Source: a bacterium (GTDB taxonomy: Bacteria; Patescibacteriota; Andersenbacteria; UBA10190). Taken from it: 45,745 nt of DNA. The position numbers and the translations under genes are program-made. Positions 15,276 through 37,588 of the stretch are shown here, one piece after another. The notes beneath the pieces are model-generated. The model worked only from the letters and a program-made list of their open reading frames with translations, did no database searches and was not told the DNA's origin. Within the stretch, counting starts at the first letter, position 1, and each line of letters begins with the position of its first letter. The DNA lies in the NCBI GenBank assembly GCA_043811915.1, contig JBDRMS010000004.1, forward strand, positions 1 through 45,745. Direction: 5' to 3'.

Positions 15276-15281
15276 ATAAGT

Positions 15282-17836: not shown

Positions 17837-17840
17837 TTAT

Positions 17841-19683: not shown

Positions 19684-20529
19684 ATGGTGTGGAAAAACCT
19701 GACTGACATATCAACCATTAAGGCGTTGTTGGCAAAAAAAGGTGTCTGCCCCCAGCGCTCTTCCGGTCAACATTTCCTGGTGTGCGAAGAGGTGGTTGAA
19801 GCGACACTTTTGGCTTTGAGTAATGAGGTGACAGAAATTACGGAGCTGGGAGCGGGCCTGGGAACACTAACACAGGCGCTGCTGGGGGCCGGTTATAAGG
19901 TGAAGGCCGTTGAGCGAGATGCCGCCTTGAATGATTTAATCTGGTTCGGCATACCAAAAAACCTTAAGGGTAATCTTGATCTGATAAGAGGAGATTTGCG
20001 CGAGGTAAACTGGAGCTGGCAGAAGGCCTACCAGCTGGTAGGCAATATTCCATATAATTTGTCAGGTTTGATTATACGACGACTGACGTTGTTAAATCCT
20101 GCACCGGATCGGGTAGTGTTGCTGGTGCAGCGGGAGGTAGGCAAGCGTTTAACGGCGAGCGAAGGCAGCTTGTCTTTGATTGGAGTGGCAGTGCAATTGT
20201 GGGGCAGTGCAGAAAGCCTACTCAACGTGCCAGCGAGTTGTTTTTGGCCAGTGCCGCAAGTGGACTCACAACTGGTGTTATTGATTCCCAGGACTGGAGC
20301 CGGCGCGACAAGCGCAGAAAGAAGAGAGAAGGTATTGACGTTGGCCAGGCAGTTTTTTCAGACCAAACGGAAACAAATGGGAGGAAGAATGAGACAGCTG
20401 CTTGGTATAAAGACTGAAAGAGCAGAGAAAATGTTGCGGGAAGCGAATATCGAACCAATAATGCGTCCACAGGAAGTATCTATTAAAGCGTGGCTAGCTT
20501 TATCGCGCGTGGTATACTCGAAAGAGTGA
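19684..20529 (+). CDS. rsmA: 16S rRNA m6,2A dimethyltransferase
   Basis: GQHFL, ELGAGLGTLT, VGNIPYN, LVQREV, FWPVPQVDS. Confidence 0.92.
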   Translation: MVWKNLTDISTIKALLAKKGVCPQRSSGQHFLVCEEVVEATLLALSNEVTEITELGAGLGTLTQALLGAGYKVKAVERDAALNDLIWFGIPKNLKGNLDLIRGDLREVNWSWQKAYQLVGNIPYNLSGLIIRRLTLLNPAPDRVVLLVQREVGKRLTASEGSLSLIGVAVQLWGSAESLLNVPASCFWPVPQVDSQLVLLIPRTGAGATSAERREKVLTLARQFFQTKRKQMGGRMRQLLGIKTERAEKMLREANIEPIMRPQEVSIKAWLALSRVVYSKE

Positions 20530-21497
20530 TGCCAAAATCAGTTATCATAATTGTGTTCGTGGTGCTTATAATAGGTGTTGCAGCTGGCGGTGTTTTTGTG
20601 GCGCGTCAGCGTTTGGGTGGTGGAGATGCTGCACCAGCTGAGAAACAGGAACAGGAGGATCAGTTTGGAGTGTTACAACCGGCAGGTACAGACGAGCAGC
20701 GAAGATTATTGGCGGCTGATGACGATAATGACGGATTAACAAACAACGAAGAAATAAGTTGGGGGACGGACCCTAATAATGCTGATAGTGATGGCGACGG
20801 GTATCTTGATGGTGAAGAAGTGGCGGCGCGACATGACCCGACCAAACCGGCGCCGGATGATAAATTGCCAGAGGAAACACAGGCAGAAGGCGGCCAGTTG
20901 CCATTGCAGCTGGAACCGTTAAAGGCAGATAAATACTTTACCGATGATTACACCAAGGGTAACGACAAAAATCTGACGGCGCAGTACGAGTCGGAGTATG
21001 CCAGGGCGGACCAAACGCCGGCTTCTTTGAATGAGTTTGCCGACAAGCAGCCGGTAGTGGCCCTGCTGCCGCGTCCTGATAGCGGGATGACAACGACGGC
21101 GGTTGAGGACACAGCGGCGCGGTTGGAACATTATCTATCAATTGCGGATAATGACAACGCTTTGGCTAATACGACATTGTACGTAGATGCACAGTATCAA
21201 CTGCAAACAAATAATAATCCGTCAGCAATGTTGAGCCTGGTCAGTTTGGTCACGGCGTATCGGGAAGAGCTGGCGGAGGCGCAGGTGCCGGAGTCGGCCA
21301 TGGAAGTACATCGGCTGCTGCTGGGACATACGGAAGCACTGGCAATTACTTTTGAACAAATAGCACAGAGGGGGGATGACCCGGCGGGGTCGCTGGTGGC
21401 AGCGCGACAGCTGGAAGTTATAGATCGAACGTACTATCCGATAATAAAGACTGAATTTGGACGTTTGGAGGCTATTCAACAAAAGCTGGCCCAGTAA
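20529..21497 (+). CDS. Membrane-anchored protein with thrombospondin-type-3-like Ca-binding repeat and helical C-terminal domain
   Basis: N-terminal TM; DDDNDGLTNNEE..WGTDPNNADSDGDGYLDGEEV; paralog of 28414-29307; ATG overlaps the rsmA stop. Confidence 0.75.
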   Translation: MPKSVIIIVFVVLIIGVAAGGVFVARQRLGGGDAAPAEKQEQEDQFGVLQPAGTDEQRRLLAADDDNDGLTNNEEISWGTDPNNADSDGDGYLDGEEVAARHDPTKPAPDDKLPEETQAEGGQLPLQLEPLKADKYFTDDYTKGNDKNLTAQYESEYARADQTPASLNEFADKQPVVALLPRPDSGMTTTAVEDTAARLEHYLSIADNDNALANTTLYVDAQYQLQTNNNPSAMLSLVSLVTAYREELAEAQVPESAMEVHRLLLGHTEALAITFEQIAQRGDDPAGSLVAARQLEVIDRTYYPIIKTEFGRLEAIQQKLAQ

Positions 21498-21549
21498 GGC
21501 ATCCGACGTAAAAAAGTTGTAGTTTAGTGTGTTATTATGGCATTAGACA

Positions 21550-23040
21550 ATGTTTGAAGTGCCTGAAAATACTGTGGGGAAGAAAAAGCGGCGGGCGCTT
21601 GCCGTAATTTTGGTTTTGGTAGTAGCGGGATTGGCGGCAGGAGCATCAATAGTTGTGTTCTACGTTGGTGGGGGGGAAGTGGATAAACTGGGAGAATATT
21701 TTAAACAGCTGCCTTTGACAGGAGAGGGGCGACCGCAAGTAGCTGACGATCCGGGAAAAGGACAAAGCGGGTTGCCGGAAAGCGGACAGACGGGTGAAGA
21801 GGAAGAAGGGCAAATTGTTATGCCGACGCCTTCTGCGCAATATAATCTGGCGGTAACTATCCAGTATCGGCGCCAGCCTAATTTTACTTTGGAAATATCA
21901 AACCTGGAGCGCACGGTGGAAAAGGACAATATTCAGTTTTACAAGGTGGCGGAAGAAAACCCTTATTCCATATTGCAGATTCTGGATGAACAGGAGCGGG
22001 TGATAATTGAGGAAAAATTTCAGGTAGCAACCGAGGTTCTGGTAGATGGATTAGAGGGAAATACTAGTCCTATTTACGCTCTAGAGGACAGTGTAAGTCG
22101 TTTTGTTTTGACGTTGCCGCCCGATAGTAAGCCGGTGAAGGTGAGACTGATTACGCCCAGAGGCATAATATTAAATGAGCGGCTGTTTTCGTTTGATGAT
22201 TTGTCTTCAGCGGCTAAAAGCGGATTATTGAAACAGATAGCCGGCTGGCTGTCGTGGGGAAGGCAGGCGCTGGGAGCAACCGAGATATTTGATATTGTGG
22301 TGATATCTAGTGTACCGAGTACTCCTGGTTCTCCGCCACTGCCGCCTGATATGGGAACATTGAATGCGGTGGCAAACGGGGTTAGAGGAATTATGTTATC
22401 GATTGATCCCTGGAGTGTATATGCCAGCCAGGTTAACGTACAAGTGGTACCTAATGTGCAAGACCTGGGGTGTAGAATTGTTACCTTTCAGGGAAGATCT
22501 TTTCCTCTTTGTCCCAATCAGGACCAGATACAACAGGTTTTGGCCGAGCAGGGAATTGCCTGGGATGCAGTGGTGATAGTGGTAATGAATGCGCCGTGTA
22601 ATTGTGGCACTTCCACGATAGGCGGTTTAATGACGGCGGTTGGTAATCGGGCTTCCGGTGACCTGGTGGCGCATGAATTTGGTCACGGCGTGGCGGCTAT
22701 GGCGGATGAATATTATGGCGGTTTGGGAATAAGAGGGCCGGGAGGACCAAATTGCTTTGGCTCTATGGAAGATTGCCAGGGTACCCTTGGTACGTACATC
22801 AGCCCCGGGGGGATATGCACGCAGGGGTGTAATAACCCGGATACGGTGCGGCCGGCTAATTTAATGATGTGGAATAATCTTAGGTCGATGAAGTTCGGTC
22901 CGGTGGAGAGATGTCTTATGGGAAAGGCAATAGCGGCGGTGCTTAAGGAAACGTATAAAGGAGATTGCGGCAAGGAAGGCCCAAGCGACGACTCGCCAAA
23001 AGGGCCCGGAGCGGCCCCGGGTTGGTATAAGGAGTATTGA
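21550..23040 (+). CDS. Membrane-anchored Zn metalloprotease, M64 (IgA peptidase)-like
   Basis: N-terminal TM; VAHEFGHGVAAMADEY matches the M64 HEFGHxxxxLADEY pattern; Cys-rich C-terminus. Confidence 0.7.
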   Translation: MFEVPENTVGKKKRRALAVILVLVVAGLAAGASIVVFYVGGGEVDKLGEYFKQLPLTGEGRPQVADDPGKGQSGLPESGQTGEEEEGQIVMPTPSAQYNLAVTIQYRRQPNFTLEISNLERTVEKDNIQFYKVAEENPYSILQILDEQERVIIEEKFQVATEVLVDGLEGNTSPIYALEDSVSRFVLTLPPDSKPVKVRLITPRGIILNERLFSFDDLSSAAKSGLLKQIAGWLSWGRQALGATEIFDIVVISSVPSTPGSPPLPPDMGTLNAVANGVRGIMLSIDPWSVYASQVNVQVVPNVQDLGCRIVTFQGRSFPLCPNQDQIQQVLAEQGIAWDAVVIVVMNAPCNCGTSTIGGLMTAVGNRASGDLVAHEFGHGVAAMADEYYGGLGIRGPGGPNCFGSMEDCQGTLGTYISPGGICTQGCNNPDTVRPANLMMWNNLRSMKFGPVERCLMGKAIAAVLKETYKGDCGKEGPSDDSPKGPGAAPGWYKEY

Positions 23041-23050
23041 ATATAAGATT

Positions 23051-26000
23051 ATGGCATTTACCTGGTGGGGACTGGCAAATATTTTTGCGGCAGCCTTGGT
23101 AACGCCGTTTGTACAGGCGGCGCAGCCTGTGTCGTTGGCCTTGCCGCAGGACATTCAATATAAAGAGTATATTGCGGGACAACTGTATGACGCCTCTTTT
23201 TCTACAAATTTGGCGCATCTATCTGATTATATGGAGGCTGGAGTGCAACAAGACGAGACTGGGGCAGGAGTAGTTTCCGGTGGCCCTTTTCTAACGGTTT
23301 TTTTGTTAAACCAAAACACGTGCACGACAGTGGGCGAGAAACAAAACTATCGGGTGATAGTGAGAAACTATGGAGACAAGCCGGCACTTTTTCCGTCTAT
23401 ACAAAATCAATATCCAATTGGGACAAGTTTTGTGGGAGGGGACCCAGAAGCACAGCACGGCGAAGATGATCACTTAATCTGGTGGTCGGGGCAAAACCTG
23501 GCGCCAGGAGGGTACTTGTCATATACATTTTCGCTGCAAACGGAAGAAACCGCGGAGATGTATTTGAACAATCTGACGGTTTATTACTTTGACGAGCAGG
23601 GAAAGATGTACGTGGCGATGGGAGAGAAGGTGTTGTCAGGAATATGCGACGAGCAAGGAGAAGTAAAAGGCATCCAAACTTACCGCGACAATCTGCAACC
23701 GGCCATAGTGTGCGATCCGGCGGAAGAAGGATGCCGGGAAACTTACCAGGGCCTGATGCCCAGACTGGGGCCAAATTACCTGAAGACATTACAGTCGCAG
23801 CAGCGGCCGGTGGTGTGTTCGGTGCATGATAAGGAGCTGCGGCAGGGATTAGTACCGCCATGCAGTGATTTTACTCCTCAATTGGGAATGCGGTTTGCGG
23901 AAGCGGTAGCTGACGTTGTGCCGGGAGAGTGCCGAGCGTTAGAGGATAACAGGATTATAGAGCCGGATTTAAACGATGCTATGGACAGACGGAGCCGGCC
24001 GGCGGCGGCTTATATGAGACCGCTGTTTGACAACGGGCAGTATTTTAAGCAGCTGGTGCACGAGAATGTGCTGCTGGGGATTGGGCACAATGACCTGGTG
24101 CGGGAGACCTGGGGAGAGATACATGGCGACAATTGGGCAGAAATGATTGGCATAGGGCAAGAGGTATTGGGAGGAACCAAAAGTACGGCGGACGCAAAAC
24201 AGGAAATCAGTGAGAAGAAAGCAGATTGGCTGAAAAATATTAAGGACAAGCAACCGGACATGCGAGACGACTATAAGAATGTCCAGGATGAACGCAAGGG
24301 TAATTTTCCAGAGGCTATCTGTAAGCAGGAAAAGTTTGATATGTATACATGCGAAGCAGTGAAGAATGCCGAAAAATCTATTCAAATGGCTTGCCAGATA
24401 AAGAGCGACGGCGAGCTGGGACCCAAGCTGCAAAGTGTAATAAACAGGTACCATCAGGTTCTTGATATACAAGAGGAGGCATATGATCAGGTACAAAAGG
24501 ACAGTCTAGCTAATTACAGCCAGGCGATAGACGATTGGGAGAAGAATTTCCAGGATGCTTTTGCTGCTTTCGACGAAGATAACCCGACGGTGCTGCAAGA
24601 CATAATTCAGCGCGCCTGGACAGAGGAACGGCCAGTGTTGATCTATGAAATAATGGCTCCGTATGGGGACCAGGCCGGCAGAGATAAGGCGGCTGATGAT
24701 AGTATAAGAACAACTGAATTTGAGTCAGCGCTTGATTTGCCAAAGACAGTTGCGACCACTTGCGCCAAGGAAAAAATTGATATCGGAGGATGGGGGCCGC
24801 CGGTAGACCCAAAGCAGCCGCTGCTTAAATATTCGGTGGAGCTGACCTGGTGTGAAAACGGCCCTGGCTTGTACGAGTCTGTGGTAAAAGGCAGACCGGA
24901 GCCTTTCCGTGATAAACAACCATGGGATTACATCCCGCAAGTCTTTGTGGGGTTAAAGAATGAATACATAGCAGGGTCGGCCTGTTCCGGGCGGCCGGGG
25001 GATCCGTGGTGGGCAGAAGATTGTTCGTGCGACTGCAGCGAAATAGTGCCGGTTAAAGAAGGCAGTATGAAGTTTTGTAAACCAGGTGAAGGATATTACA
25101 CCGAGGGAGGGCCGCCGCCGCCAGATGGATGGGCGCCACCGGCAGATATCCCGGCTCCTTATGTTTATGTAAAGGACAAAATACTGGCTTTGATTGATAG
25201 CGTAGGAGTTACAGCGAAGATGGCGCGGGCACAAACTGATCCGCCGCCGGGGCCTGGGCCGTTGTGCCCGAACATGACTGACTGGTATGTCAGCATAGAA
25301 GATGCTGATATTTGCCGGGGAATTGACCCTCCAGGGGATCCTTCTCGAGAAAGTATAGATTCTGAATCTTGCGGGGGAAACCCTATGTGTTTGTATAGAA
25401 TAGGCATGGACATTTCGGCAGATTTGGAGGTAGCCCACGAGGGAACCGGCAAAGTATGGGTGGTAGGAGACTGGGATTGGGGAGTTGAGGTTCTTTCGTC
25501 TGATGGTGGAGGAGAAATGTGCAGCATGACAACAAAGAATACGTCACACCAGGTGGATGTTCCCGGGGGGCAGAAGGCATACCTCAAGTATCTTGCTGAA
25601 GGCAATGGTCAAGGTCATAAAGGGGCAAGCGCCACAGCCACAAAGACGTCGGAAACGGAAGTGTTCTGCATGTGCGCAGATCTGGAAGATCCATGTGATT
25701 TGCCGCCCGGCTATCAGGGTCAGCTGTTAGTGAATCCTCAATGTGACCCGCCGTTGGAAGTATCTGTCAGGGAAGTGGCGCCGGGAAAAGCGACGGAAGG
25801 CGACCCGCCGGCACAAAATCAAGTTACTTTTGAAGTGTACGTGCATGACGCGAGCGGCACTCCGGTGAGTAGCCCGGGAGAGGTGGTGGTAGAGGTTTCA
25901 ACACGAGACGGATCGGCTAAAGCCGGTACTGATTATGAACAGATAACATCCCGGCAAATTACTATCGGGAAAGGTTCGACCAGTACGACCTTCACAGTAA

Positions 26001-27154
26001 ACACGGTGTCTGACTTGCTCCCGGAGCCGGAGGAGAATTTCTATGTAGACATAAGCCGAACCTGCAAAGGGAATATTACGATTACCCAGTCTTCCGCAAC
26101 AGGAATCATTGAAGATGATGATACCTTAAATGTCGTGGTAAATGACGTGGCTGTAACGGAGGGGGATCCGGGAGATGAAGTGAAGGCAACATTTACAGCC
26201 ACGGTGTATGACAAAAACAATAATGAGGTTTACAACCACGGGGAGCTGGATGTAACCCTGATGACGCGCGATATTACTGCTATAGTTAATGCTGATTACT
26301 GGGAGAGGACAGCGACAATACATATTCCGGATGGCAATAGTAGCGGGGAATTTGCGGTAGATATAATTTCTGACGCTAAACCAGAGCGACCAAAGGATGA
26401 GTTGTTTGCAGTGGATTACTCGTGGAATGGCGGCCAGGGCACACTGGGCGGCACGGCTACGGGAATGATTACAGATGATGACCTGTTATACGTTTCAGTG
26501 TTCTATGTAGGTCCGACGACACTAGAAGGCAATGATCCAAATAATCCCCCTTTAATGGATTTCTATATTTATGTGTTTGATGAAAATGGTCATGGATTTT
26601 ATGATCACGGAGGAGTTACGGTGAACCTTTCTACTGCGGATATAACAGCAGTGCAGGGGAATGATTATGAGCCTAACAGTCAGTTCATAACTATACCGGA
26701 TGGTTCTTATAGTGATGTTTTTACGGTGAGGGTAATTTCCGATCTTGTGCCGGAGACGCCGGTGGTTGAGTCGTTTGGAGTGAACTATTATTGGGACTGG
26801 AGCAGCGGGCCGGATTCAGGATCGGGCTTAACGATTGGGGAAATTTATGATGATGATGTACCGCCGCCTCCTCCACCACCATCGCCGGTACCCAGTCCGA
26901 GTCCTTCGCCAAGTCCGAGTCCTTCACCGAGTCCTTCACCTTCTCCGAGTCCTTCGCCTTCGCCGAGTCCGAGTCCATCACCTTCTCCGAGTCCCAGTCC
27001 ATCACCGAGTCCTTCGCCAAGCCCGAGTCCTTCGCCTTCGCCTTCGCCGAGTCCGAGTCCGAGTCCGAGTCCCCGTATGATCCACGACATTTGGGTTACG
27101 TCTAAAAAAGAGTGCTTGGCTAATAACCAAAAAGAGCATCATTTAAACCCTTAG
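23051..27154 (+). CDS. Large secreted/surface protein: DUF11-like Ig domain, helical region, Cys-rich region, 3 Calx-beta domains, (SP)n linker
   Basis: Signal-like start ending VQA; three units of TEGD..F...V.T.D..A....DY...I.DDD; Pro7 then (SP)30. Confidence 0.75.
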   Translation: MAFTWWGLANIFAAALVTPFVQAAQPVSLALPQDIQYKEYIAGQLYDASFSTNLAHLSDYMEAGVQQDETGAGVVSGGPFLTVFLLNQNTCTTVGEKQNYRVIVRNYGDKPALFPSIQNQYPIGTSFVGGDPEAQHGEDDHLIWWSGQNLAPGGYLSYTFSLQTEETAEMYLNNLTVYYFDEQGKMYVAMGEKVLSGICDEQGEVKGIQTYRDNLQPAIVCDPAEEGCRETYQGLMPRLGPNYLKTLQSQQRPVVCSVHDKELRQGLVPPCSDFTPQLGMRFAEAVADVVPGECRALEDNRIIEPDLNDAMDRRSRPAAAYMRPLFDNGQYFKQLVHENVLLGIGHNDLVRETWGEIHGDNWAEMIGIGQEVLGGTKSTADAKQEISEKKADWLKNIKDKQPDMRDDYKNVQDERKGNFPEAICKQEKFDMYTCEAVKNAEKSIQMACQIKSDGELGPKLQSVINRYHQVLDIQEEAYDQVQKDSLANYSQAIDDWEKNFQDAFAAFDEDNPTVLQDIIQRAWTEERPVLIYEIMAPYGDQAGRDKAADDSIRTTEFESALDLPKTVATTCAKEKIDIGGWGPPVDPKQPLLKYSVELTWCENGPGLYESVVKGRPEPFRDKQPWDYIPQVFVGLKNEYIAGSACSGRPGDPWWAEDCSCDCSEIVPVKEGSMKFCKPGEGYYTEGGPPPPDGWAPPADIPAPYVYVKDKILALIDSVGVTAKMARAQTDPPPGPGPLCPNMTDWYVSIEDADICRGIDPPGDPSRESIDSESCGGNPMCLYRIGMDISADLEVAHEGTGKVWVVGDWDWGVEVLSSDGGGEMCSMTTKNTSHQVDVPGGQKAYLKYLAEGNGQGHKGASATATKTSETEVFCMCADLEDPCDLPPGYQGQLLVNPQCDPPLEVSVREVAPGKATEGDPPAQNQVTFEVYVHDASGTPVSSPGEVVVEVSTRDGSAKAGTDYEQITSRQITIGKGSTSTTFTVNTVSDLLPEPEENFYVDISRTCKGNITITQSSATGIIEDDDTLNVVVNDVAVTEGDPGDEVKATFTATVYDKNNNEVYNHGELDVTLMTRDITAIVNADYWERTATIHIPDGNSSGEFAVDIISDAKPERPKDELFAVDYSWNGGQGTLGGTATGMITDDDLLYVSVFYVGPTTLEGNDPNNPPLMDFYIYVFDENGHGFYDHGGVTVNLSTADITAVQGNDYEPNSQFITIPDGSYSDVFTVRVISDLVPETPVVESFGVNYYWDWSSGPDSGSGLTIGEIYDDDVPPPPPPPSPVPSPSPSPSPSPSPSPSPSPSPSPSPSPSPSPSPSPSPSPSPSPSPSPSPSPSPSPSPSPSPRMIHDIWVTSKKECLANNQKEHHLNP
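26861..27073 (+). repeat. Coding Pro/Ser-Pro repeat
   Basis: PPPPPPPSPVP then 30 Ser-Pro dyads (26894-27073) using mixed codons AGT/TCG/TCA/TCT and CCG/CCT/CCA/CCC. Confidence 0.9.
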
Positions 27155-27168
27155 GGATTTAATGTAGT

Positions 27169-27873
27169 ATGAATGATATGGATAATCCTCAAGTTGGTCA
27201 GTCAATGCCGCCAGCGGAGCAAGAGGGGCCGGTAACAAAGATAGGCGTAAAGGTTGCCGGGATAACGACGGTGGTTTTGTTGGTGTTGTTTGGCTTCTAT
27301 TGGGGAGGAAAAGAGCTATTGTTGCCTCCGGGCGGGGAGAAAAAGGAAGGAGCGGCTCCCGTTGAAGTTAAACCGAGGTGTCCGGATGATCAAGTGTATA
27401 CGGATTTGCAGAAAGCTTTACAGGGCCCTGATGACGTATGCGAGCTTGATTTAAGTGATAAAAACCTGACTACTTTGCCTTGGCAAATTGGCACTTTGAA
27501 GAATTTAAGTATTCTCAATTTAAATAATAATGACCTTACCGAGCTTACTCCTCATGTTGGCTACCTGGAAAAGTTGATAAAGATTTCTGTAAACAACAAT
27601 AAATTGACTGATATACCATTACAGGTGGGATATTTTAAGCAGGTGAGAAGTTTTGATTTACGGGGGAACATATTAACTAACATACCAGAGCAGATTGGCT
27701 GGCTAGAGGAGATGAAAGTATTCGACTTGAGAGATAATGGTTTGACGTCTTTACCACAACGCATGGATAGGTTGAGTAAGTTAGAGCGGCTGGAATTAGA
27801 AGGTAATCCGCTGCCGCAAGAAGAAATAGACAGAGTGAAGAGCGTATTGCCAGATGCGACGGTGAATTTTTAG
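27169..27873 (+). CDS. Membrane-anchored leucine-rich repeat protein
   Basis: TM anchor, YTDLQKALQGP cap, 23-aa LxxNxLTxLPxxIGxL repeats, GNPLP...LP.A.VNF C-cap. Confidence 0.88.
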   Translation: MNDMDNPQVGQSMPPAEQEGPVTKIGVKVAGITTVVLLVLFGFYWGGKELLLPPGGEKKEGAAPVEVKPRCPDDQVYTDLQKALQGPDDVCELDLSDKNLTTLPWQIGTLKNLSILNLNNNDLTELTPHVGYLEKLIKISVNNNKLTDIPLQVGYFKQVRSFDLRGNILTNIPEQIGWLEEMKVFDLRDNGLTSLPQRMDRLSKLERLELEGNPLPQEEIDRVKSVLPDATVNF

Positions 27874-27874
27874 C

Positions 27875-28366: not shown

Positions 28367-28413
28367 CGGGAATACCATATAATGGGAGTACTATTTATAG
28401 GTAGGCTTCCTTC

Positions 28414-29307: not shown

Positions 29308-30820
29308 ATGGGTTGCGGCACTGGTTGTCGTGGCAGGAATACTGGGAGCTGTGAGAGCAGCCAAAGCGGATCCGCACGCCATGTTTTATACGGCCATCGG
29401 GCAGCAGCAGTTGTTCTATAACGTGCTGGCGGCGCTGGACCAGGCGGATTATGTGGAAACGCAATTTTCGCGGGAAGAGCTGGTAAAGGCACGAGGAGAA
29501 GAAAAAGCGACGCCACCTTTTAAGGACGAAGAGTTCCCTCTAACGGAGGCAACGAAGGTGGGACAGGAGACGGTGTCGGAAACGGACCCGGGTATTGCCG
29601 ATTTGCTGATGCGATCAATAACGCTGGAGGGAACTGATCAATACAACGACGAGCTGGTGCGCGAGTTCGGGGCGGAGTCGGGCCGGCGGAATGCCACCAG
29701 CGAGTTGCTGCGGGCGCTGTGCGACTATGGGCTGGGGTTTAAGGATTGTGAGAATGACAAAACAGGAATGACACCGGCGCAGATCGCGGAAGCAGAGGAT
29801 TACCGCCGGGGGGCTGTGGTTAGAGATCCGCTGGAGTGGAACATGCGGCCGATAACAGACGGGGTGCTGGCGGCTTTCTCATCAGGCACGGAAGCTGACA
29901 AGCAGGAACGCTTGAGAAGATTTTCAAAGCCTGAAGGGGAGAGAATGCCGATGGCCTATTCGCCAACGATTGCCAAATGGCGAAAAGAGATACTTAATGA
30001 CGCGTATAAGACGAAGCTATTGGATAAGGTATTAATAGACGTGGCCAGCACATACGTGCCGCCTGATTTTGAATTCCCCTACAAGAATTTCAAAATCAGC
30101 ACCGCGCCCGGCAGTTACGGGGAGACGGTGGTTGACTGTGCCCCGAAAAGCGCGTCGGATCCGCCAGAGTTTGATTGTCTAGAAAATACAGCCAGTAATG
30201 TTTTGTTCGCGCCCATGATAATGCAGGAGATTGCGACTAAGGCATATGACCGCATCGCCGCGCAGCAGAAAATGATGGAGGAACAAGGATTGCTGGCTGA
30301 CGTTACCCTTAAATCGAGCGAGTACGGCTTGCCAGGAGAAAGCTCTGTGCCTTCAACTGGTAATCCGGAGGAGTTGTCTGTGGTGGTGAAAAACCCGGTG
30401 GCGGTAAGGACGGGGGAGGTTTACAGCCTGCCGAACGCGCTGGCCATGCTGGACACCAGCCAGCAAGCCAGTTCACTGGCGGGGCTCGATAAGCCGGGCA
30501 GCCAGCAATTAGTGGAGCGAAGCGGGTCGTCAAGCAGTAGTCCTACCTGTAACTGTGTATCGCCTGGGGACCCCGATTATGACCCCAGTCTTCCTCTGTG
30601 TCAGACGGGTGATCCACAATGCAATGTACTGGGAACACTGAACCTGTTTGATCCTGGTAAGTATGAAAGGTATGACAAAGAGAAGGAACCGACGTCGCCG
30701 TCGGCTAATCTTATAGCCGGACACCTGGAGCAGGGGGCGGTACATGCTTTGCGAGTACTGACGGCCGGGAATTTCCGAAAGACGACGGGGGTGCCGACCT
30801 GCGGATATACCTGTTATTAA
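29294..30820 (+). CDS. Secreted hypothetical protein
   Basis: Signal peptide ending AKA|DP; Cys pairs and Ser-rich linker; overlaps the upstream gene by 14 nt. Confidence 0.7.
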   Translation: MDWNKWVAALVVVAGILGAVRAAKADPHAMFYTAIGQQQLFYNVLAALDQADYVETQFSREELVKARGEEKATPPFKDEEFPLTEATKVGQETVSETDPGIADLLMRSITLEGTDQYNDELVREFGAESGRRNATSELLRALCDYGLGFKDCENDKTGMTPAQIAEAEDYRRGAVVRDPLEWNMRPITDGVLAAFSSGTEADKQERLRRFSKPEGERMPMAYSPTIAKWRKEILNDAYKTKLLDKVLIDVASTYVPPDFEFPYKNFKISTAPGSYGETVVDCAPKSASDPPEFDCLENTASNVLFAPMIMQEIATKAYDRIAAQQKMMEEQGLLADVTLKSSEYGLPGESSVPSTGNPEELSVVVKNPVAVRTGEVYSLPNALAMLDTSQQASSLAGLDKPGSQQLVERSGSSSSSPTCNCVSPGDPDYDPSLPLCQTGDPQCNVLGTLNLFDPGKYERYDKEKEPTSPSANLIAGHLEQGAVHALRVLTAGNFRKTTGVPTCGYTCY

Positions 30821-30837
30821 ATTTGTCTGTGAAGATT

Positions 30838-32895
30838 ATGACCTGGCACAAAGTAATATCAACCGGCGGGTTGATGGTGTTTCTGATGATGGGATTAGCG
30901 CAGCCGCACGAGGCGGCGGCAGCGACACCGCCATTGTTAGTGCAGGAAACGGAGGCGCAGCTGGTGACGGCCGGCTGCGAGAGAGTGAAGGTGGCAGATG
31001 CTAAAGCGATGCAGGCGGCTGGAGCGTTGGACTGGCAGGCGGTGGTATCATCTGACGCCACGGGCGAGGCGCTGTTGTTTTGCCCGCCGTCAGTTGTCGG
31101 AGAGAACGGTCTGCCAAAAGGCGACGGACAAGTAGCCGGGTTAACGGCGTACGCCGCACAGAATGCTAATCCTCTTGATAATAGTTGGGACGAGTGGCTG
31201 CAGAGAGCCGTGCGATACATGTTGCCTGGAGCAGGGCTTTTGGCTGAAATAAATGATGCTGTTGCCTTCGTTTTTTGGCTATTCTTTACTTTCCTTGCCA
31301 AAGTAGCGCAGTGGCTAATTTATACTTTATCCACTTATATAGAGCCCCTTTTGTCGTTAAGCAGCTTTGTTAATAACGAAGTGGTGCGGAAGGCATGGCC
31401 GGTGGTCTTGGGAGTCGCGAACATGGGGTTCCTGCTGGCCCTGGTTCTTATTGCTTTACTCACGACCCTGCGCTTGGAGGTGGGGGGCGGAGTGAGGCGG
31501 CTTTTGCCCCGGCTTTTGATAGCGGCGCTCTTGGTCAACTTCAGCTTGGTTATAGGCGGGGTGATTCTTGATGCCTCGCGAATAATTATGGCGCTGATAC
31601 CGCCTATCTTTGACAGTAGTTTTGATAGCATGGCGACCATGCTGGTACTGAAGGCTAACATGGCCATAATTTTTTATAATGTACAACAGTCATTGGCAAC
31701 GGGATTTTCACTTGATAGCGCTGCTTTAAGTTACATAAATCCAGTCAAGGGGTGGGATCAAGTTTTGGCCACTATACTTAACGCAGTAGTAGCATGGATT
31801 ATAGCGTTGGCATTGGCGGTGGTGATAGTTGGCCTGTTGATACGTTACCTTATGCTTCTTTTGTTGTTGATTGTCTCGCCGCTGGCCTACCTATTTGTAG
31901 CCCTTCCGGGAGCGAGCGGGTTGGCCAAGCGTTGGTGGACAATGTTTATGCGCTACGTGATTTACGGGCCAGTAGTGTTGTTTATTCTTATGGCAGCGCT
32001 GAGCGTTGATGAACTGATTGATGTTGGTGGCTTTTTTGATGTCAGCAACGCCAATGAGGAGATAGCAATTAGACAAAGAGCTTATTGGGAGATCTTGGGA
32101 GCAGCGGTTTTTTCCGCAGCGTTGGTCGCGGCAGCGATGGCCGGACGGTACGCGGGCATCGTTGGCTCGGCGACGGCCATTGGCATAGCCACGGGGACGG
32201 GAAGAAGAGTAAGAGGGATAGCGTACGGGGGGGCTAAAGGAATAGCGAAGGGCGTGGCGGCGCCGGTGACAGTGCCGGCCCGATTTGCAGCGAAAGAGGG
32301 TCGCAGGTATCTAGGCAAACAAGCACAAGGGTTTCTGGGAGCGGCCGGCGCCAGAATCATGGCCGGGTTTGGTTATGGAAAAGGGGCCCCACCGCCGGGG
32401 AAGAAGCTGGGGGAGAGGGTATTTGGCAAGCCGCTCACACGGGAGCAGAGAGGTCAGGCTGCTGCCGCTAAAGCGTTTGTGCCGACGGGGGCTACCCAGG
32501 CGCAGAGAGATGCCTCGGTTCGCGGTTCAACCGCTTGGACTCCCAATTCACTACGCCAAGAGCATGTAGGAGGATCGCTTTCACAAGCACAGCGCGAATC
32601 TATTATGGATATGGAGAATACCAAAGAAAATAGGGCATACAAGGTGGCGCTGGCTGGCAACGCCGAGGCGGTTAAAAACATGACGGCGGGGGAGAGAAGC
32701 AAGATTGAAATGCTTGACGTCAACATGCGGGTTGACTTGCCAACTACGGGGGTGGACGACGCCACGGCGGCGGCCAACGGGGACCAAAACAGGAAAAACG
32801 CGATTGAAAATGAGATTAATCGGGCAACACAAAAAGCATATTACAGTTCGCTTGACAGGCTGCATAGGCAAAGCCAGGCACCAACAACGCCCTAG
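30838..32895 (+). CDS. VirB6/TrbL-like polytopic T4SS membrane protein
   Basis: W..VLGVANMGF, LPRLLIAALLVNFS, RYLMLLLLLIVSPLAY, KRWW..F; Gly/Ala-rich cytoplasmic tail; upstream of PrgI and VirB4. Confidence 0.75.
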   Translation: MTWHKVISTGGLMVFLMMGLAQPHEAAAATPPLLVQETEAQLVTAGCERVKVADAKAMQAAGALDWQAVVSSDATGEALLFCPPSVVGENGLPKGDGQVAGLTAYAAQNANPLDNSWDEWLQRAVRYMLPGAGLLAEINDAVAFVFWLFFTFLAKVAQWLIYTLSTYIEPLLSLSSFVNNEVVRKAWPVVLGVANMGFLLALVLIALLTTLRLEVGGGVRRLLPRLLIAALLVNFSLVIGGVILDASRIIMALIPPIFDSSFDSMATMLVLKANMAIIFYNVQQSLATGFSLDSAALSYINPVKGWDQVLATILNAVVAWIIALALAVVIVGLLIRYLMLLLLLIVSPLAYLFVALPGASGLAKRWWTMFMRYVIYGPVVLFILMAALSVDELIDVGGFFDVSNANEEIAIRQRAYWEILGAAVFSAALVAAAMAGRYAGIVGSATAIGIATGTGRRVRGIAYGGAKGIAKGVAAPVTVPARFAAKEGRRYLGKQAQGFLGAAGARIMAGFGYGKGAPPPGKKLGERVFGKPLTREQRGQAAAAKAFVPTGATQAQRDASVRGSTAWTPNSLRQEHVGGSLSQAQRESIMDMENTKENRAYKVALAGNAEAVKNMTAGERSKIEMLDVNMRVDLPTTGVDDATAAANGDQNRKNAIENEINRATQKAYYSSLDRLHRQSQAPTTP

Positions 32896-32897
32896 CT

Positions 32898-33383
32898 ATG
32901 ATAGATTGGCAGCTATTTATGGCAAAGCCGCTGGGGTCGGTGCTTACACGCCCGCCGCTGGAGCAAGACCAGCTAATCGAAAAATCTTTTACTTTGCCAC
33001 GGCCGGTTAAGAGTTTATTCAATGCGGAAAGAACGGGAGCTTACATTATAGGTTTGGCCAAGGCGTATAGGTTATCAACTGACCAGGCTCACAGTATTGC
33101 CCTTATGATTCTTACGGTTGGCCTAGGCGAAAAGACGCTGGCGCAGCTGGCCAGTTTGTTGTCGACGGAGCTGAAGCTGTCGAATGATAAGGCGCAGAAG
33201 ATGGCGCGGGAGATTGAGGAGGATTTGTTCGGGCCGGTGATGAAGGAGTTGGAGGAATACTGGCAACGGCAGAAGAGCGGCCCGCCTGCGCCAGAGGCTT
33301 CGGCGGGTGAAACGGGGGCGCGCAATGTGCTTAACCTGAAAGAGCAGAAAAAGCCGCCGGCACCGCCGCCGATGCCGAGATGA
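32898..33383 (+). CDS. Hypothetical helical protein preceding PrgI
   Basis: LSTELKLSNDKAQKMAREIEEDLFGPV; stop overlaps the PrgI start (ATGA). Confidence 0.7.
   Translation: MIDWQLFMAKPLGSVLTRPPLEQDQLIEKSFTLPRPVKSLFNAERTGAYIIGLAKAYRLSTDQAHSIALMILTVGLGEKTLAQLASLLSTELKLSNDKAQKMAREIEEDLFGPVMKELEEYWQRQKSGPPAPEASAGETGARNVLNLKEQKKPPAPPPMPR
33281..33307 (+). repeat. Palindromic repeat copy 3 (in frame)
   Basis: CCCGCCTGCGCCAGAGGCTTCGGCGGG, translated (G)PPAPEASAG. Confidence 0.8.
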
Positions 33384-33826
33384 GATACCAGGTTCCACAG
33401 TTCGTCGACATTCAGGACCGGATTATTGGTCCGCTGACGCTGAAGCAGTTTCTTTTTTATATGGCGGCAGGAATGTTGCTGGTGCCGGTTTATTTTTTGT
33501 CCGACCTGGGCCTATTCTTGAGCGTAGCTATTCCTACAGTGGGCGTGGCGGCGGCTTTTGCCCACATACACTGGCGGGGACAAACTTTTGCGTCGTTATT
33601 GTCGCACGGGTTGCGATATTTTACGGGGGAGCGCATGTATCTGTGGCGGCGAGAAGCCGGAGCGGGCAGTGTACACATTGCCGGCAGTGAGTATGAGGAG
33701 TTTACCGAGGCGGTGCCTATTACCACTTCGGCTCTGGACGCGGTGGTGCAAACGCTGAACACGCAAGGGAATATTATTGCCCAGGACGCAGCAGATCCGC
33801 TGCTGGAGGAAGAAGGAGCTAAGTAG
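33380..33826 (+). CDS. prgI: PrgI-family (VirB3-like) protein
   Basis: MRYQVPQFVDIQDRIIGPLTLKQF signature plus two TM segments. Confidence 0.85.
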   Translation: MRYQVPQFVDIQDRIIGPLTLKQFLFYMAAGMLLVPVYFLSDLGLFLSVAIPTVGVAAAFAHIHWRGQTFASLLSHGLRYFTGERMYLWRREAGAGSVHIAGSEYEEFTEAVPITTSALDAVVQTLNTQGNIIAQDAADPLLEEEGAK

Positions 33827-33838
33827 TACACTAGCTTC

Positions 33839-34570
33839 ATGCGCAGTGCGGATAAGAAGGGTAAGCCGACGCAACAGCTAGTGCCGCTCAAGGAAGTGCG
33901 TGATGGCATTGCTGTTCTGTCGGATGGAACCTTGCGGTCTATATTGATCGTATCGTCGCTTAACTTCGCCCTTAAGTCAGAGGATGAGCAGAATGCTATT
34001 GTGCTTGCTTTTCAGGATTTTTTGAATTCACTCGACTTTCCGGTGCAGATTACGGTTGTGTCGCGCAAACTGGATATCACTCCTTATTTAGAGGAATTGC
34101 GAGGCCGCAAAGAGGGGCAGAGTAATGAGTTGCTGCGCCTGCAAATGGATGAATATATAAATTTTGTGGCTGAATTGGTAAAAGGCAGCGATGTTATGGC
34201 CAAAACGTTTCTGGTAACGGTGCCGTTTTCGGTGCAGCAAAGTCGGCAAGATAATTTTTTGCAACGTTTTATCAAGAGCTTGAAAAATATCGGCAAAAAG
34301 TCGCCACAGGTATCAGAAGCGGACTTCGTGCACTACCGGTCGCAATTGTTGCAGCGGGTAGAGCAGGTGGCGGTGGGTCTGCGCGGGGTGGGACTTCGGC
34401 TGGTACCGCTACAAACCCAGGAGATGTTGGAGCTATTTTATGACACTTTCAACCCGGCCACATCGCGTAATCAGCCACTCGGTAATGCGGCTCAATTGAA
34501 AGTGAGGGAGACAGAATCACATGAGTTGGTAGCAGAGGAGGCTAATAAGAAGCCGTGGGCGGGAAAATAA
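33839..34570 (+). CDS. TraC/VirB4 N-terminal-like protein
   Basis: NFALKSEDEQNAI...FQDFLNSLDFPVQI..SRKLD, L.L.Y..FNP; sits between PrgI and the ATPase. Confidence 0.75.
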   Translation: MRSADKKGKPTQQLVPLKEVRDGIAVLSDGTLRSILIVSSLNFALKSEDEQNAIVLAFQDFLNSLDFPVQITVVSRKLDITPYLEELRGRKEGQSNELLRLQMDEYINFVAELVKGSDVMAKTFLVTVPFSVQQSRQDNFLQRFIKSLKNIGKKSPQVSEADFVHYRSQLLQRVEQVAVGLRGVGLRLVPLQTQEMLELFYDTFNPATSRNQPLGNAAQLKVRETESHELVAEEANKKPWAGK

Positions 34571-34584
34571 TTAATATACGAGAT

Positions 34585-36426
34585 ATGCCAAATATATTAG
34601 GTTTTGAAATTAGCAAGAAACAAAACGGAGCCAGGAAGAAAAAAGAGTTCACAACCCCGGAAGAGCAGGCCGAAGAGAGACAATTTGAAGAAGGGGTGGC
34701 GAGTCTGAAAGACATTCTGGCGCCAGCAGCTTTTCAGGTCAACCCGGGACATCTGGAAATTGACGGTAAGTTTGCTACGACATTGTTTGTAATGACTTAT
34801 CCACGCTATCTGGAAACTAATTGGCTTTCTCCTATCATTAATTTTGATATTGAGTTTGATATGAGTATGTTTATTTATCCCCAGGAGTCGGCCACGGTGC
34901 TAAAACAAATGAAACGGCAGGTAACCCAGGTGGCGGCCTCTATTTCTATGCGGGCAGAGAAAGGAAAAGTGCGAGACCCGCAACTGGAAACGGCCTATCG
35001 TGATATTGAAGAGCTACGTGATAGATTAGTACAAGGAACGGAACGATTTTTTCAGTACAGTTTGTACCTGACGATTTATGGAGATACCAAAGAGGAATTG
35101 GACGAAGTCGCAGCCCAGGTCGAGGTATTGCTGGAGGGAAGGCTGGTGTATGTTAAGCCAGCACTGTTTCAGGCCAAGGAAGGTTTTTTGTCTACGCTGC
35201 CGTTGGGACATGATAAGCTGGTGCGCTCAACTAATATGAGCTCCTCATCGCTTTCCACTACATTTCCTTTTGTCAGTTCAGACCTGACCAGTAACAACGG
35301 TATTTTGTACGGTGTTAACCTACACAATAACAGCTTGATATTGTTTGATCGTTTTAGTCTGGAGAATGCCAATATGGTTATCTTCGCCAAATCGGGCGCG
35401 GGCAAGTCGTATTTGGCGAAGTTGGAGATTTTGCGGCAGCTGATGTTCGACACGGAAGTTATTGTCATAGACCCGGAGCAGGAGTATCGCTACCTGTCTG
35501 ATTCGGTAGGGGGAGCGTATTTGCGCATTGCCACGGCTTCGGATCACCGGATTAATCCTTTCGACCTGCCGGAATTAAATGAGGACGATGAACCGGAGGC
35601 GGTACTGCGCGAGAATATAACGCGCTTAACCGGCCTTATTTCATTAATGGCAAGCGGTTTTACGCCGGAAGAACAGTCGGTGGCAGACAGAGCATTGTGG
35701 GAAACGTATGCTCTGAAAGATATAACAAGGGGGGCGCGCTGGCAGCGCCCGGAGACTCCGACACTGCAGGATTTCTACACGGTGGTTAACGACATGGAGG
35801 GCGGGGCGAATATTGCGCTCCGGCTGGAGCGTTTTGTGGAAGGAACGTATGCGGGAGTGTTTAACCGACCGACTAATGTTGATCTAAATAAGCAGCTGGT
35901 GGTATTTAATGTGCGGGATATGGAAGAAGAGCTGCGGCCAATCGCCATGTACGTGGTGCTGGGCTTTATTTGGAATAAGGTGAGAAGCTCGCTGAAGCGA
36001 CGGGTGCTGGTGGCTGATGAGGCGTGGGTCCTTATGCAGCACGAGGAGTCAGCCAAGTTTTTGTTTTCTATTGCCAAGCGGGCTCGTAAATACTACTTGG
36101 GCGTAACAACTATTACCCAGGATATTCAGGACTTTTTGGGTTCCCAGTACGGCAAGCCGATTGTGACTAATTCTTCATTGCAACTACTGCTGCGGCAGTC
36201 GCCGGCGGCAATTGACTTGCTGGCCGAAGTTTTTTACTTAACGGATCATGAGAAGTTTCGCCTGCTGGAGAGTGATGTGGGCGAAGGTCTTTTCTTCGCC
36301 GGATTAAAGCACGTGGCCATTAAAGTGGTGGCCAGTTATGCCGAAGACCAGGTGATAACGTCCGATCCGCAGCAGGTGCTGGCGATTGAAGCAGCCAAGC
36401 GAGAGTTGGCGCAAGCGGGAGGGTGA
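34585..36426 (+). CDS. virB4: VirB4/TraC-family T4SS ATPase
   Basis: Walker A AKSGAGKS, IDPEQEY, INPFD, Walker B VADEAW, RARKY, ITQ; start ATG 34585. Confidence 0.92.
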   Translation: MPNILGFEISKKQNGARKKKEFTTPEEQAEERQFEEGVASLKDILAPAAFQVNPGHLEIDGKFATTLFVMTYPRYLETNWLSPIINFDIEFDMSMFIYPQESATVLKQMKRQVTQVAASISMRAEKGKVRDPQLETAYRDIEELRDRLVQGTERFFQYSLYLTIYGDTKEELDEVAAQVEVLLEGRLVYVKPALFQAKEGFLSTLPLGHDKLVRSTNMSSSSLSTTFPFVSSDLTSNNGILYGVNLHNNSLILFDRFSLENANMVIFAKSGAGKSYLAKLEILRQLMFDTEVIVIDPEQEYRYLSDSVGGAYLRIATASDHRINPFDLPELNEDDEPEAVLRENITRLTGLISLMASGFTPEEQSVADRALWETYALKDITRGARWQRPETPTLQDFYTVVNDMEGGANIALRLERFVEGTYAGVFNRPTNVDLNKQLVVFNVRDMEEELRPIAMYVVLGFIWNKVRSSLKRRVLVADEAWVLMQHEESAKFLFSIAKRARKYYLGVTTITQDIQDFLGSQYGKPIVTNSSLQLLLRQSPAAIDLLAEVFYLTDHEKFRLLESDVGEGLFFAGLKHVAIKVVASYAEDQVITSDPQQVLAIEAAKRELAQAGG

Positions 36427-37019
36427 TGATGGCGGAGTCCCAAGAAGAAGAACGGCGAGCGGAAAAAGAGGAGCAGCGAACGGCACGCAAAGAAAGGCAA
36501 AGGGAGAGGGAGCTTAAGATGTTGAAACAGGCACAGAAAAGAGTGGGGCAAGCAACGGGGCAGACGGTTGGACGAGGAGCGCAGGCAGCTACATATGGTG
36601 CGGCTACAGCGGCGGATGTGGCGGCCACGCCGGTGCACGTGGCAACTTTAGGCGCTACAAAAGCGGCGACGGCGGCGGGCAAAAAGGCGGCGACGGCGGC
36701 AGCTTACAGAGCAGGCAAACTAGCGGGTAGAGAGGCGGGAAAAGCTCCGTTTCGGCCGGCGGTGGCTCTGCAGAAAAGGCGAGTAGGGAGAGCCAAGGCG
36801 GCGCATCGGCGGGCACAAGAAGATTTAGCGGAAGCGAGGGCGGCGCGGGAGGAGGAAGGAGGGGAGAGAGCGGCAGATGAGCGGCTGCTAAAAATTGGTT
36901 TTAAGGTTTTAAAAAAATCGGCCGGGATTATTTTAGGGGTGTTGGCGTCGCTGGTAGTTGGCTTCCTAATGCTGATGCTTTTGATAATAGTGGCGGTAAT
37001 AGTGGTAGTATTGTTATAG
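36423..37019 (+). CDS. Ala/Arg-rich protein with C-terminal TM segment
   Basis: Overlaps the virB4 stop; KAATAAG repeats; hydrophobic C-terminus. Confidence 0.6.
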   Translation: MMMAESQEEERRAEKEEQRTARKERQRERELKMLKQAQKRVGQATGQTVGRGAQAATYGAATAADVAATPVHVATLGATKAATAAGKKAATAAAYRAGKLAGREAGKAPFRPAVALQKRRVGRAKAAHRRAQEDLAEARAAREEEGGERAADERLLKIGFKVLKKSAGIILGVLASLVVGFLMLMLLIIVAVIVVVLL

Positions 37020-37027
37020 GGTCTATT

Positions 37028-37588
37028 ATGAGGAGAGGAAGAATAAATAAATTATTATTGGGGAGCATAATTGTGGCGGTGGCAGGATGGCTGGCGGCGC
37101 CAAGCGTCCTGCTAGCCCAGGAAGGAAAAGCATGCACCCCGGGAGGATATGCTGTTTGCCCCGCCAACTATATTTGCAAGAAAAAAACGCCAAGTGCTGG
37201 TTTTACATGTGAGTGCGCCTGGGGTGATATAGAAGTAGGTTTGCCTGGCAAAAAAATAAATATTGGGGATAGTATTTGTACTCTCGTGACTTCTTCAGGC
37301 GGAGGGCCTGGTTGGTTTGTTCAACAGATTGTTACAGCCATGATAGCGCTGACGGTTATGGCGGCCTTGGTCAGTATTGTGGTTGGCGGATATATCTATA
37401 TGACGGCGGGGGGGAGCGGAGACAGGGTGCGGACAGCAAAAATATGGATAGGGTCGGCGATACTGGGGATTATTCTGGCGCTGCTGGCGTGGTTAATTCT
37501 GGCCTCTATTGCAAGTAATTTGGTGTCATTTTCTACTCCCTCCTCACCCTCCACTTCTCCTTCTTCGCCAACAAGTACGCCATACTAA
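37028..37588 (+). CDS. VirB2/TrbC-like T4SS pilin with Cys-rich N-terminal module
   Basis: Signal ..VLLA|Q, Cys module, IVVGGYIYMTAGGSGDRVRTAK.WIGSAILGIILAL; Ser/Thr/Pro tail. Confidence 0.8.
   Translation: MRRGRINKLLLGSIIVAVAGWLAAPSVLLAQEGKACTPGGYAVCPANYICKKKTPSAGFTCECAWGDIEVGLPGKKINIGDSICTLVTSSGGGPGWFVQQIVTAMIALTVMAALVSIVVGGYIYMTAGGSGDRVRTAKIWIGSAILGIILALLAWLILASIASNLVSFSTPSSPSTSPSSPTSTPY

Follow-up and report, generated by a model that had tools for sequence, protein, structure and literature searches.

Does the chromosomal type IV secretion system (T4SS) of a Patescibacteria genome include the surface-protein genes that stand in front of its virB4, or are these genes merely its neighbours? 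The question is raised by a locus at positions 20529-37588 of a stretch of 45,745 nucleotides (nt), called the window below, from a bacterium of the Andersenbacteria (UBA10190; assembly GCA_043811915.1, contig JBDRMS010000004.1). The window is the entire contig C4 of a genome (G000) of about 870 kb, which is spread over 18 contigs (C1-C18) and rated 100% complete. An original prediction, made from the letters and a list of open reading frames (ORFs), had seen here a domesticated, non-conjugative secretion or attachment machine whose upstream genes provide host recognition and surface proteolysis. Our analysis indicates that the locus is probably the known chromosomal T4SS of Patescibacteria, preceded by a front module of membrane anchors and a secreted protein (g07) and by a variable cassette of surface-protein genes. 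The T4SS itself is already published; the part that may be new is the front, with its conserved anchor, a g07 specific to the order and a cassette flanked by two copies of the anchor.

The ORF list places 14 plus-strand genes, numbered g01 to g14, between the stop codon of rsmA and a VirB2-like pilin gene. The block is as co-directional and as tightly packed as had been claimed, with gaps of at most 52 nt and overlaps of at most 16 nt; the ATG of g01 (20529) shares one base with the TGA of rsmA, and at the other end a convergent Wzy_C gene overlaps the end of g14. The genes of the block are as follows.

20529-21497, plus strand: g01, membrane anchor with two DxDxDG (TSP3) calcium motifs and a C-terminal four-helix-bundle domain, with g06 as its paralogue (TSP3_bac 47.3 bits against a cut-off of 25)
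21550-23040, plus strand: g02, membrane-anchored putative zinc metalloprotease, M64-like (hydrophobic segment 19-37; HEFGH...DEYY at residue 375)
23051-27154, plus strand: g03, surface giant of 1367 amino acids with a weakly DUF11-like N-terminal part, a Cys-rich middle, Calx-beta domains (66.9 bits) and a tract of SP dipeptides
27169-27873, plus strand: g04, membrane-anchored leucine-rich-repeat (LRR) protein (LRR_4, LRR_8, LRR_14; hydrophobic segment 25-43)
27875-28366, plus strand: g05, a second membrane-anchored LRR protein, in tandem with its paralogue g04 (phmmer between the two, E 1e-33)
28414-29307, plus strand: g06, membrane anchor with TSP3 calcium motifs and a C-terminal four-helix bundle (TSP3_bac 33.5 bits against a cut-off of 25)
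29294-30820, plus strand: g07, secreted protein of 508 amino acids with a signal peptide and 10 Cys
30823-32895, plus strand: g08, polytopic VirB6-like membrane protein (6 hydrophobic segments)
32898-33383, plus strand: g09, 161 amino acids, without hydrophobic segment or known family, in a fixed slot between VirB6 and PrgI
33380-33826, plus strand: g10, PrgI/VirB3-like, two hydrophobic segments (PF12666 30.7 bits against a cut-off of 27)
33839-34570, plus strand: g11, TrsD-like, a gene apart from virB4 whose product resembles the VirB4 N-terminal part (TraC_F_IV positions 19-179, E 3.9e-4, under the cut-off)
34555-36426, plus strand: g12, VirB4 ATPase (P-loop_TraG 81.3 bits, AAA_10 40.9 bits, rear part of TraC_F_IV)
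36423-37019, plus strand: g13, 198 amino acids, Lys/Ala/Arg-rich, with a C-terminal hydrophobic segment and no known family
37028-37588, plus strand: g14, VirB2-like pilin, in which a signal peptide is followed by a Cys-rich N-terminal part, a pair of hydrophobic helices and an S/P/T tail (PF18895 27.1 bits, cut-off 26.6)

On the strength of matches in Pfam, predicted export segments and structure matches of VirB4, the observation behind the original prediction was confirmed with small corrections only. Six of the seven proteins described as exported or anchored carry an N-terminal hydrophobic segment over threshold, whereas g03 has a signal-peptide-like start only. The domains had been named, but g09 and g13 were passed over without a name. 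Likewise, the series of VirB6-like, PrgI, TraC-like, VirB4 and pilin genes stands as listed, except that the "TraC-like" member probably corresponds to a published gene: we read "TraC-like plus VirB4" as TrsD plus VirB4 because the described system has a separate TrsD gene (PMC12102498).

That system, a chromosomal T4SS found across Patescibacteria with a VirB4 clade related to the Gram-positive MPF-FATA class, is described in the text of Quinonero-Coronel et al. 2025 (PMC12102498). It comprises a separate TrsD resembling the VirB4 N-terminus, PrgI/VirB3, VirB6 and VirB2-like pilins that often occur in arrays, and it is accompanied by very few relaxases, by coupling proteins mostly distant from virB4 and, often, by a nearby KsgA (RsmA) gene (PMC12102498). 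Our locus resembles it, as well as the S. epibionticum genes SEML1_0006-0019 (PMC10633639), in having VirB4, PrgI/VirB3 and a VirB2-like pilin, along with a putative TrsD encoded on its own and a putative VirB6-like protein, and also in its chromosomal place, its lack of a match to the six relaxase families searched, the distance of the coupling protein from virB4 and the proximity of KsgA/RsmA. It differs in its pilins, of which a single gene stands at the locus while the array is found on a different contig. With the MPF-FATA T4SS of Gram-positive plasmids (pGO1 trs; pCF10 prgH/I/J) it shares a putative separate TrsD and the common ancestry of the ATPase, VirB3 and VirB6 (PMC12102498). It differs from them in the absence of a relaxase or linked coupling protein, in its VirB2-like pilin and in being chromosomal and vertically inherited, and no VirB1- or VirB8-type gene was recognised in the block. 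In pCF10, surface-adhesin genes (PrgB) presumably lead the operon, as they do in the present locus.

Among the genes of the core, the domain matches of g10, g12 and g14 pass their Pfam cut-offs. The g12 sequence, for which an ATG at 34585 is a possible alternative start, has a GAGKS P-loop and a DEAW stretch, and it matches in the PDB both 4AG5 (E 2.9e-44) and TrwK (E 1.6e-11, g12 147-571 aligned to TrwK 305-736). Of 41 relatives, reaching up to phylum level, 40 have VirB4, mostly in single copy and at 47-87% identity, and the only miss is a genome that is 93% complete. The TrsD-like gene adjoins virB4 in all 25 loci inspected (20 of 20 and 5 of 5), the two lying in different frames in those relatives for which coordinates were compared. 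While g08 is less readily named, it is kept beside PrgI, TrsD and VirB4 across the loci compared, and 7 of 17 orthologues weakly match TrbL/VirB6 in Pfam (best E 1.4e-4). For g09, hidden Markov model (HMM) matches were found in the sister family and in the distant loci L048 and L058; its profile (A4) retrieved nothing meaningful from the PDB, Pfam gave scattered single matches over all orthologues, and its ESM Atlas neighbours are Minisyncoccota clusters without names (score 0.91), which we treat as a lead only. Proteins similar in sequence to g13 occur in 3 of 12 family loci, and an ORF of 131-239 amino acids occupies the same slot in most.

Against this background, the strongest new result concerns the anchors g01 and g06, whose family is linked to the T4SS well beyond this lineage. 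The two proteins can be aligned over their full length (profile A1, 26 sequences). A profile built on the bundle domain alone, without TSP3 (A6), matches g01 at E 4.1e-51 and was searched in 301 genomes drawn evenly from the phylum. It found matches in 47 of them, namely in 13 of 14 genomes of the family, in 2 of 2 of the sister family and in 31 of 284 others. In 20 of these 31 genomes outside the order, the anchor gene and virB4 share a strand, with the anchor 5.6-10 kb upstream. Five of the linked loci, each from a distant family and examined in full, share one gene order: rsmA (4 of 5), the anchor, a secreted protein, a VirB6-like protein, a soluble protein, PrgI, TrsD, VirB4 and small membrane proteins; the DxDxDG motifs are kept in 4 of the 5 anchors, and the secreted protein, which stands at the slot of g07, has 265-290 amino acids (584 in L058). 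Among 1.84 billion cluster representatives the bundle domain has 669 relatives at E <= 0.001, 82 of them at E <= 1e-30, and in most of the matches listed it is C-terminal in a protein of about 250-340 amino acids. Two further TSP3 proteins, encoded on contig C6 beside housekeeping genes, were considered as anchors and set aside because A6, which lacks TSP3, retrieves only g01 and g06 in their own genome.

The predicted structure gives a first description of this domain. The AlphaFold2 (AF2) model of g06 has a pLDDT of 84.9, with the C-terminal domain above 93, and runs from a membrane helix through the TSP3 stretch and a linker to a four-helix bundle (about 166-297), whose four long helices span 170-293. 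Foldseek found nothing in the PDB at E <= 0.001, and profile A1 matched there the TSP3 calcium motif alone. The best rows of VIA-align were the four-helix-bundle sensor domains of McpS (Z 10.7), PcaY (10.2) and Tar (8.8), scores which, at about 9-10.7, fall in the tool's common range for helical bundles; the likeness is for this reason a description of the fold and not of function or membership. In the models, g06 166-297 resembles these domains (2YFA, 6S18 and 1LIH respectively) at Z 8.8-10.7, with a root-mean-square deviation of 2.7-3.2 over 114-125 residues, and both are membrane-anchored and extracellular; identity, however, is 7-10%, and g06 has no cytoplasmic signalling domain. The extracytoplasmic domain of VirB8 has an NTF2-like alpha+beta fold. 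The near-all-helix model of g06 and its four-helix-bundle best matches would thus speak against a likeness to VirB8.

The second conserved component of the front module, g07, has a narrower distribution. Once the predicted signal peptide is removed, conservation is concentrated at the start of the mature protein: in both families of the order, residues 26-55 (DPHAMFYTAIGQQQLFYNVLAALDQADYVE in the window) vary far less than the remainder and are nearly invariant (profiles A2, A5). A profile of this N-domain matched 16 of the 301 genomes, every one in the order, and none of the 284 outside it. The gene is single-copy in 15 of the 16; the remaining genome, G006, has two, both in the T4SS locus. 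There, an extra gene of 892 amino acids lies between g06 and g07 (L036:11184-13862, minus strand), and as the C-terminal part of its product matches the g07 N-domain profile at E 6.4e-34, it is by sequence a second, diverged g07-like gene. In distant families, the secreted proteins that occupy the slot of g07 were tried as its homologues and rejected: they are alike among themselves and have no detectable similarity to g07. Profile A2 retrieved no relative in the PDB and Pfam on all orthologues gave scattered single matches only, while the AF2 model is poor (pLDDT 53) and unfit for a fold search. The ESM Atlas neighbours are again Minisyncoccota clusters without names (score 0.80), which is a lead only. 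So is the position just before VirB6, which in classical operons is the place of virB5.

To place these genes in their neighbourhood, the 14 proteins were compared with 20 loci, of which 12 belong to the family, 3 to the sister family of the order and 5 to other parts of the phylum. All 12 family loci have g06-g12, and the block follows rsmA wherever the contig extends there. The comparison found g01 in 10 of the 12; of the other two, one has a contig that ends first, and in the other g01 is just past the stretch compared, both copies having been found later. In the sister family 2 of 3 loci have a g06-like gene, and all 3 encode, together with g08, g10, g11 and g12, a short protein equivalent to the g07 N-domain. 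Two peculiarities of related loci were seen along the way. In L041 (G007:C3) the PrgI-TrsD pair at 14960-16097 lies on the strand opposite VirB6 and VirB4, an inversion within an otherwise kept operon. In addition, genes for 23S_rRNA_IVP, a four-helix-bundle IVS protein, sit in gaps of the T4SS operon of relatives (L033:10750-11166 and 6149-6565; L035:13754-14134; L036:5680-6087); two are in a same-genus genome and none is in the window.

Conversely, the genes between the two anchors are patchy across the family loci, and for this reason the protease, the Calx-beta giant and the LRR genes are, on sequence comparison, read as a variable cassette that usually lies between two conserved paralogues. 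Relatives have 0-4 genes in this slot, and in 4 of 12 family loci the cassette is missing altogether, with g01 followed directly by g06. Orthologues of g02 occur in 2 of 12 loci. In g02 itself, which has the HExxH zinc-binding motif, the match to PF09471 (Peptidase_M64) is 23 bits, under the gathering cut-off of 26, over profile positions 106-164 of 302; the orthologue in L037 has 17 bits and HELGH...DEY, and that in L041 has no HExxH. The N-terminal part of g03 is present in 6 of 12 family loci and its C-terminal part solely in the same-genus locus, and LRR genes are present in 4 of 12. Within g03, the SP-dipeptide tract (26860-27084) consists of degenerate repeats of 6, 12 and 18 nt, across which contigs of two metagenomes (X3 and X5) have different letters, suggesting length or sequence polymorphism between strains.

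Such variability raises the alternative that all seven upstream genes, or at least those of the cassette, encode independent surface proteins that occupy a permissive spot between rsmA and the T4SS genes and have no physical or functional tie to the machine. In its favour, close relatives may have the cassette, lack it or have another one; the TSP3, LRR and Calx-beta domains are surface modules of a generic kind, the C6 proteins provide two instances of TSP3 away from the T4SS, and within the family genes of unrelated function are equally syntenic. It does not sit well, however, with the anchor family lying upstream of virB4 on the same strand in so many distant genomes, with the tight spacing of the block, with the cassette always being flanked by the two anchor paralogues and never at the edges, or with the result that phmmer gave no paralogue of g02, g03, g04 or g05 in the rest of the genome. 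We regard complete independence of these genes as rather improbable. For the claim that the upstream genes serve host recognition and surface proteolysis, the picture is divided: the synteny with virB4 in relatives that had been proposed as its check holds for the anchor, and beyond the order, but g07 is confined to the order and the protease, Calx-beta and LRR genes come and go, so that as worded the claim was too strong.

A quite different explanation is that the locus is an ordinary integrative conjugative element, or the remnant of one, that moves DNA between cells. The VirB4, VirB6, VirB3 and pilin genes do descend from conjugation machinery (PMC12102498), tRNA-Pro and tRNA-Gly genes lie 2.6 kb upstream, a transposase gene lies downstream, and the genome carries a VirD4-like gene. 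The flanking features are listed here.

18349-19494, minus strand: LysM and Peptidase_M23 cell-wall hydrolase (Pfam M23 124.7 bits, LysM 83.3 bits)
19684-20529, plus strand: rsmA/ksgA, first gene of the co-directional block (ORF)
42577-43614: DDE transposase (Pfam rve, HTH_32, HTH_28), about 5 kb downstream of the locus and past three convergent glycan genes

A palindromic repeat of about 32 nt with an 18-nt core, found in the window at 11549-11580, 17806-17837 and 39409-39440, could at first sight provide flanking att sites, the copies at 17806 and 39409 enclosing the locus. The repeat also occurs on contigs C1, C3, C5, C6 and C16, with at least 9 copies genome-wide on 6 contigs (at most 2 mismatches), some of them inside coding regions, and because it is dispersed in this way the pair was rejected as att sites. 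Moreover, an island bounded by these copies would enclose the housekeeping gene rsmA. The relaxase families PF03432, PF08751, PF01076, PF03389, PF02486 and PF07514, to which the search was confined among MOB classes, have no match in the genome, which is rated 100% complete. Pfam detected neither a tyrosine nor a serine recombinase in the 24 ORFs scanned at 13.3-45.6 kb (14 of the locus and 10 of its flanks, three small ORFs at 40.9-42.2 kb being left out), and of mobile-element genes the window shows the DDE transposase alone. Place and gene order are the same across the family and in distant families, and composition is like that of the neighbouring genes, as had been noted (GC content 0.47-0.55 in the locus, 0.47-0.53 in the flanks and 0.46-0.50 in the contigs). 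The locus is not a conjugative or mobile element, and we consider the alternative of an integrative conjugative element highly improbable. The reading as a domesticated, non-conjugative T4SS is upheld by the lack of relaxase matches, the single-copy VirB4 in 40 of 41 relatives and the kept place beside rsmA, and is already contained in the texts of PMC12102498 and PMC10633639.

The absence of a relaxase, VirD4 and integrase that had been stated for the window also holds for the window, but not in every part for the genome, since a genome-wide search for a type IV coupling protein (T4CP) did find one candidate. It is a VirD4/T4CP-like protein of 830 amino acids (TrwB_AAD_bind, T4SS-DNA_transf, TraG-D_C) with an N-terminal extension of about 380 amino acids, encoded on the minus strand at C8:36689-39181 (L003:9690-12182). 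Its gene stands on a separate contig among housekeeping genes, with DUF3048 and holA on one side and genes of no known family on the other, and is unlinked to virB4. In addition, five pilin ORFs lie at the start of contig C13 (C13:1-2826, L060, minus strand), adjoining an SBP gene and gyrA. They hold nine T4SS_pilin domains, four of them in tandem in an ORF of 375 amino acids and two in one of 198; the main text of PMC12102498 is silent on pilins with several fused domains. The window thus holds only a part of the machine, with the VirD4-like gene on C8 and a pilin array on C13.

Next to the locus, the LysM-M23 hydrolase gene, which diverges from rsmA, keeps its place in 10 family loci and was not found in the five distant loci read. 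It is a possible VirB1-type helper; M23 and LysM domains occur on some VirB1-like proteins (PMC12102498). The plus-strand GC skew is positive (0.16-0.28) at about 9-40 kb, including the minus-strand genes at 37.5-40.7 kb, and negative afterwards; the switch at about 40000-41500 may be a replication landmark near the T4SS locus, and T4SS genes near the replication origin are discussed in PMC12102498. Promoter and terminator scans gave consensus matches only (35 and 31 against 19 expected from shuffles) and were not used.

DNA nearly identical to the locus is present in groundwater and biofilm metagenomes of several studies. There is also a weak hint that the locus is expressed: contigs of a groundwater metatranscriptome (X4) cover 25 of 30 bins of 19000-38900, 31 of 33 contigs being at least 99% alike, and the g03/g04 and g12/g13 junctions are spanned by such pieces. 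Nothing was drawn from the 5 uncovered bins.

If the front module and the core indeed belong together, a mechanism can be sketched. VirB4 and TrsD would power the assembly of a pilin tube through a platform of VirB6 and PrgI, and the anchors, stiffened by calcium, would form with g07 an extracytoplasmic base or tip of this tube. The cassette proteins, with their LRR binders, Calx-beta/DUF11 giant and zinc protease, could bind and trim the surface of the host cell, and the tube could then act as a contact-dependent conduit. The role of the Patescibacteria T4SS is called unknown in PMC11665869 and PMC12857230, uptake or effector delivery having been proposed (PMC11665869), and tubular structures that are possible T4SS pili are described in a cultivated relative (bioRxiv 10.64898/2026.06.21.733656). 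A complex prediction with g06 110-297, g08 30-470 and g07 24-165 scored 0.21 against a mark of 0.32, which is evidence neither way.

As to what passes through such a conduit, we lean, at somewhat short of even chances, towards uptake of host macromolecules, ahead of effector export, which seems less probable, and of adhesion alone, which comes last. Uptake is favoured because no relaxase was found and because the coupling protein is unlinked and reported as dispensable in S. epibionticum (PMC12102498). The ComB system of Helicobacter pylori, a relaxase-less T4SS proposed for import (PMC11665869), is a functional analogy only. ComB belongs to a diderm, with subunits that have no close relationship to those here; for Patescibacteria, uptake by a T4SS has yet to be shown, and ComEC is dispensable in S. 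epibionticum. The competing view, that the machine is chiefly an adhesion or pilus organelle or an effector exporter and that the anchors are envelope struts with no role in substrate passage, is a serious contender to which we give somewhat under even odds. Pilin genes are abundant (g14 and the nine pilin domains on C13), adhesin-type domains are found in the cassette and effector delivery is one of the published speculations (PMC11665869). On the other hand, no candidate effector or secretion signal was identified here, and the coupling protein is unlinked and reported as non-essential in S. epibionticum (PMC12102498).

Several points weigh against the preferred reading of a known T4SS with its own front module and cassette, in addition to the ordinariness of the bundle Z scores noted above. 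Linkage of the anchor to virB4 was not seen in 11 of the 31 genomes outside the order that have A6 matches: the anchor lies 18 kb upstream in one, 75 kb away in another and on other contigs in nine, six of the nine belonging to family f18, where the matches are partial and in longer proteins. Family-level synteny says little because the whole neighbourhood is syntenic, including the unrelated M23 hydrolase (10 loci), a small ORF, YmdB, DHH and Wzy. Within the core, g08 has no Pfam match of its own and its profile (A3) retrieved no solved VirB6 from the PDB; the TrsD identity of g11 derives from the sub-threshold Pfam match, and its profile (A7) had no match in the PDB. That the cassette serves the machine is suggested by its position only, and the preference for uptake is a matter of reasoning throughout. 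The RNA library behind X4 may hold DNA, and its contigs do not prove a single transcript. For this organism, finally, the case is built on sequence and models. A bolder proposal goes further: the anchor would be an unrecognised, widely conserved structural subunit of the T4SS that replaces the unfound scaffold proteins, its duplication in the order would have created a docking site by which swappable host-recognition proteins (LRR, Calx-beta/DUF11 giant, M64-like protease) are mounted on the machine, the cassette would be a modular host determinant and g07 the base or tip of the pilus. We advance this as an idea that is, on present evidence, unlikely.

The front module appears not to have been described before. 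According to its main text, the study of PMC12102498 detected no adhesins, and the TSP3/four-helix-bundle anchor, g07 and a cassette between anchor paralogues all go unmentioned there; nor did literature searches on thrombospondin, Patescibacteria and secretion (title and abstract) or on Andersenbacteria type IV secretion return a description. The Patescibacteria T4SS is essential in the one species tested, S. epibionticum (Wang et al. 2023, PMC10633639). Published surveys have found for it no adhesins and almost no scaffold proteins. If the front genes were merely neighbours, the locus would be another copy of the known system. If they are not, it may offer two candidates for the missing extracellular part of the machine, namely an anchor that travels with virB4 across families and a cassette of binding and protease genes inside the operon.

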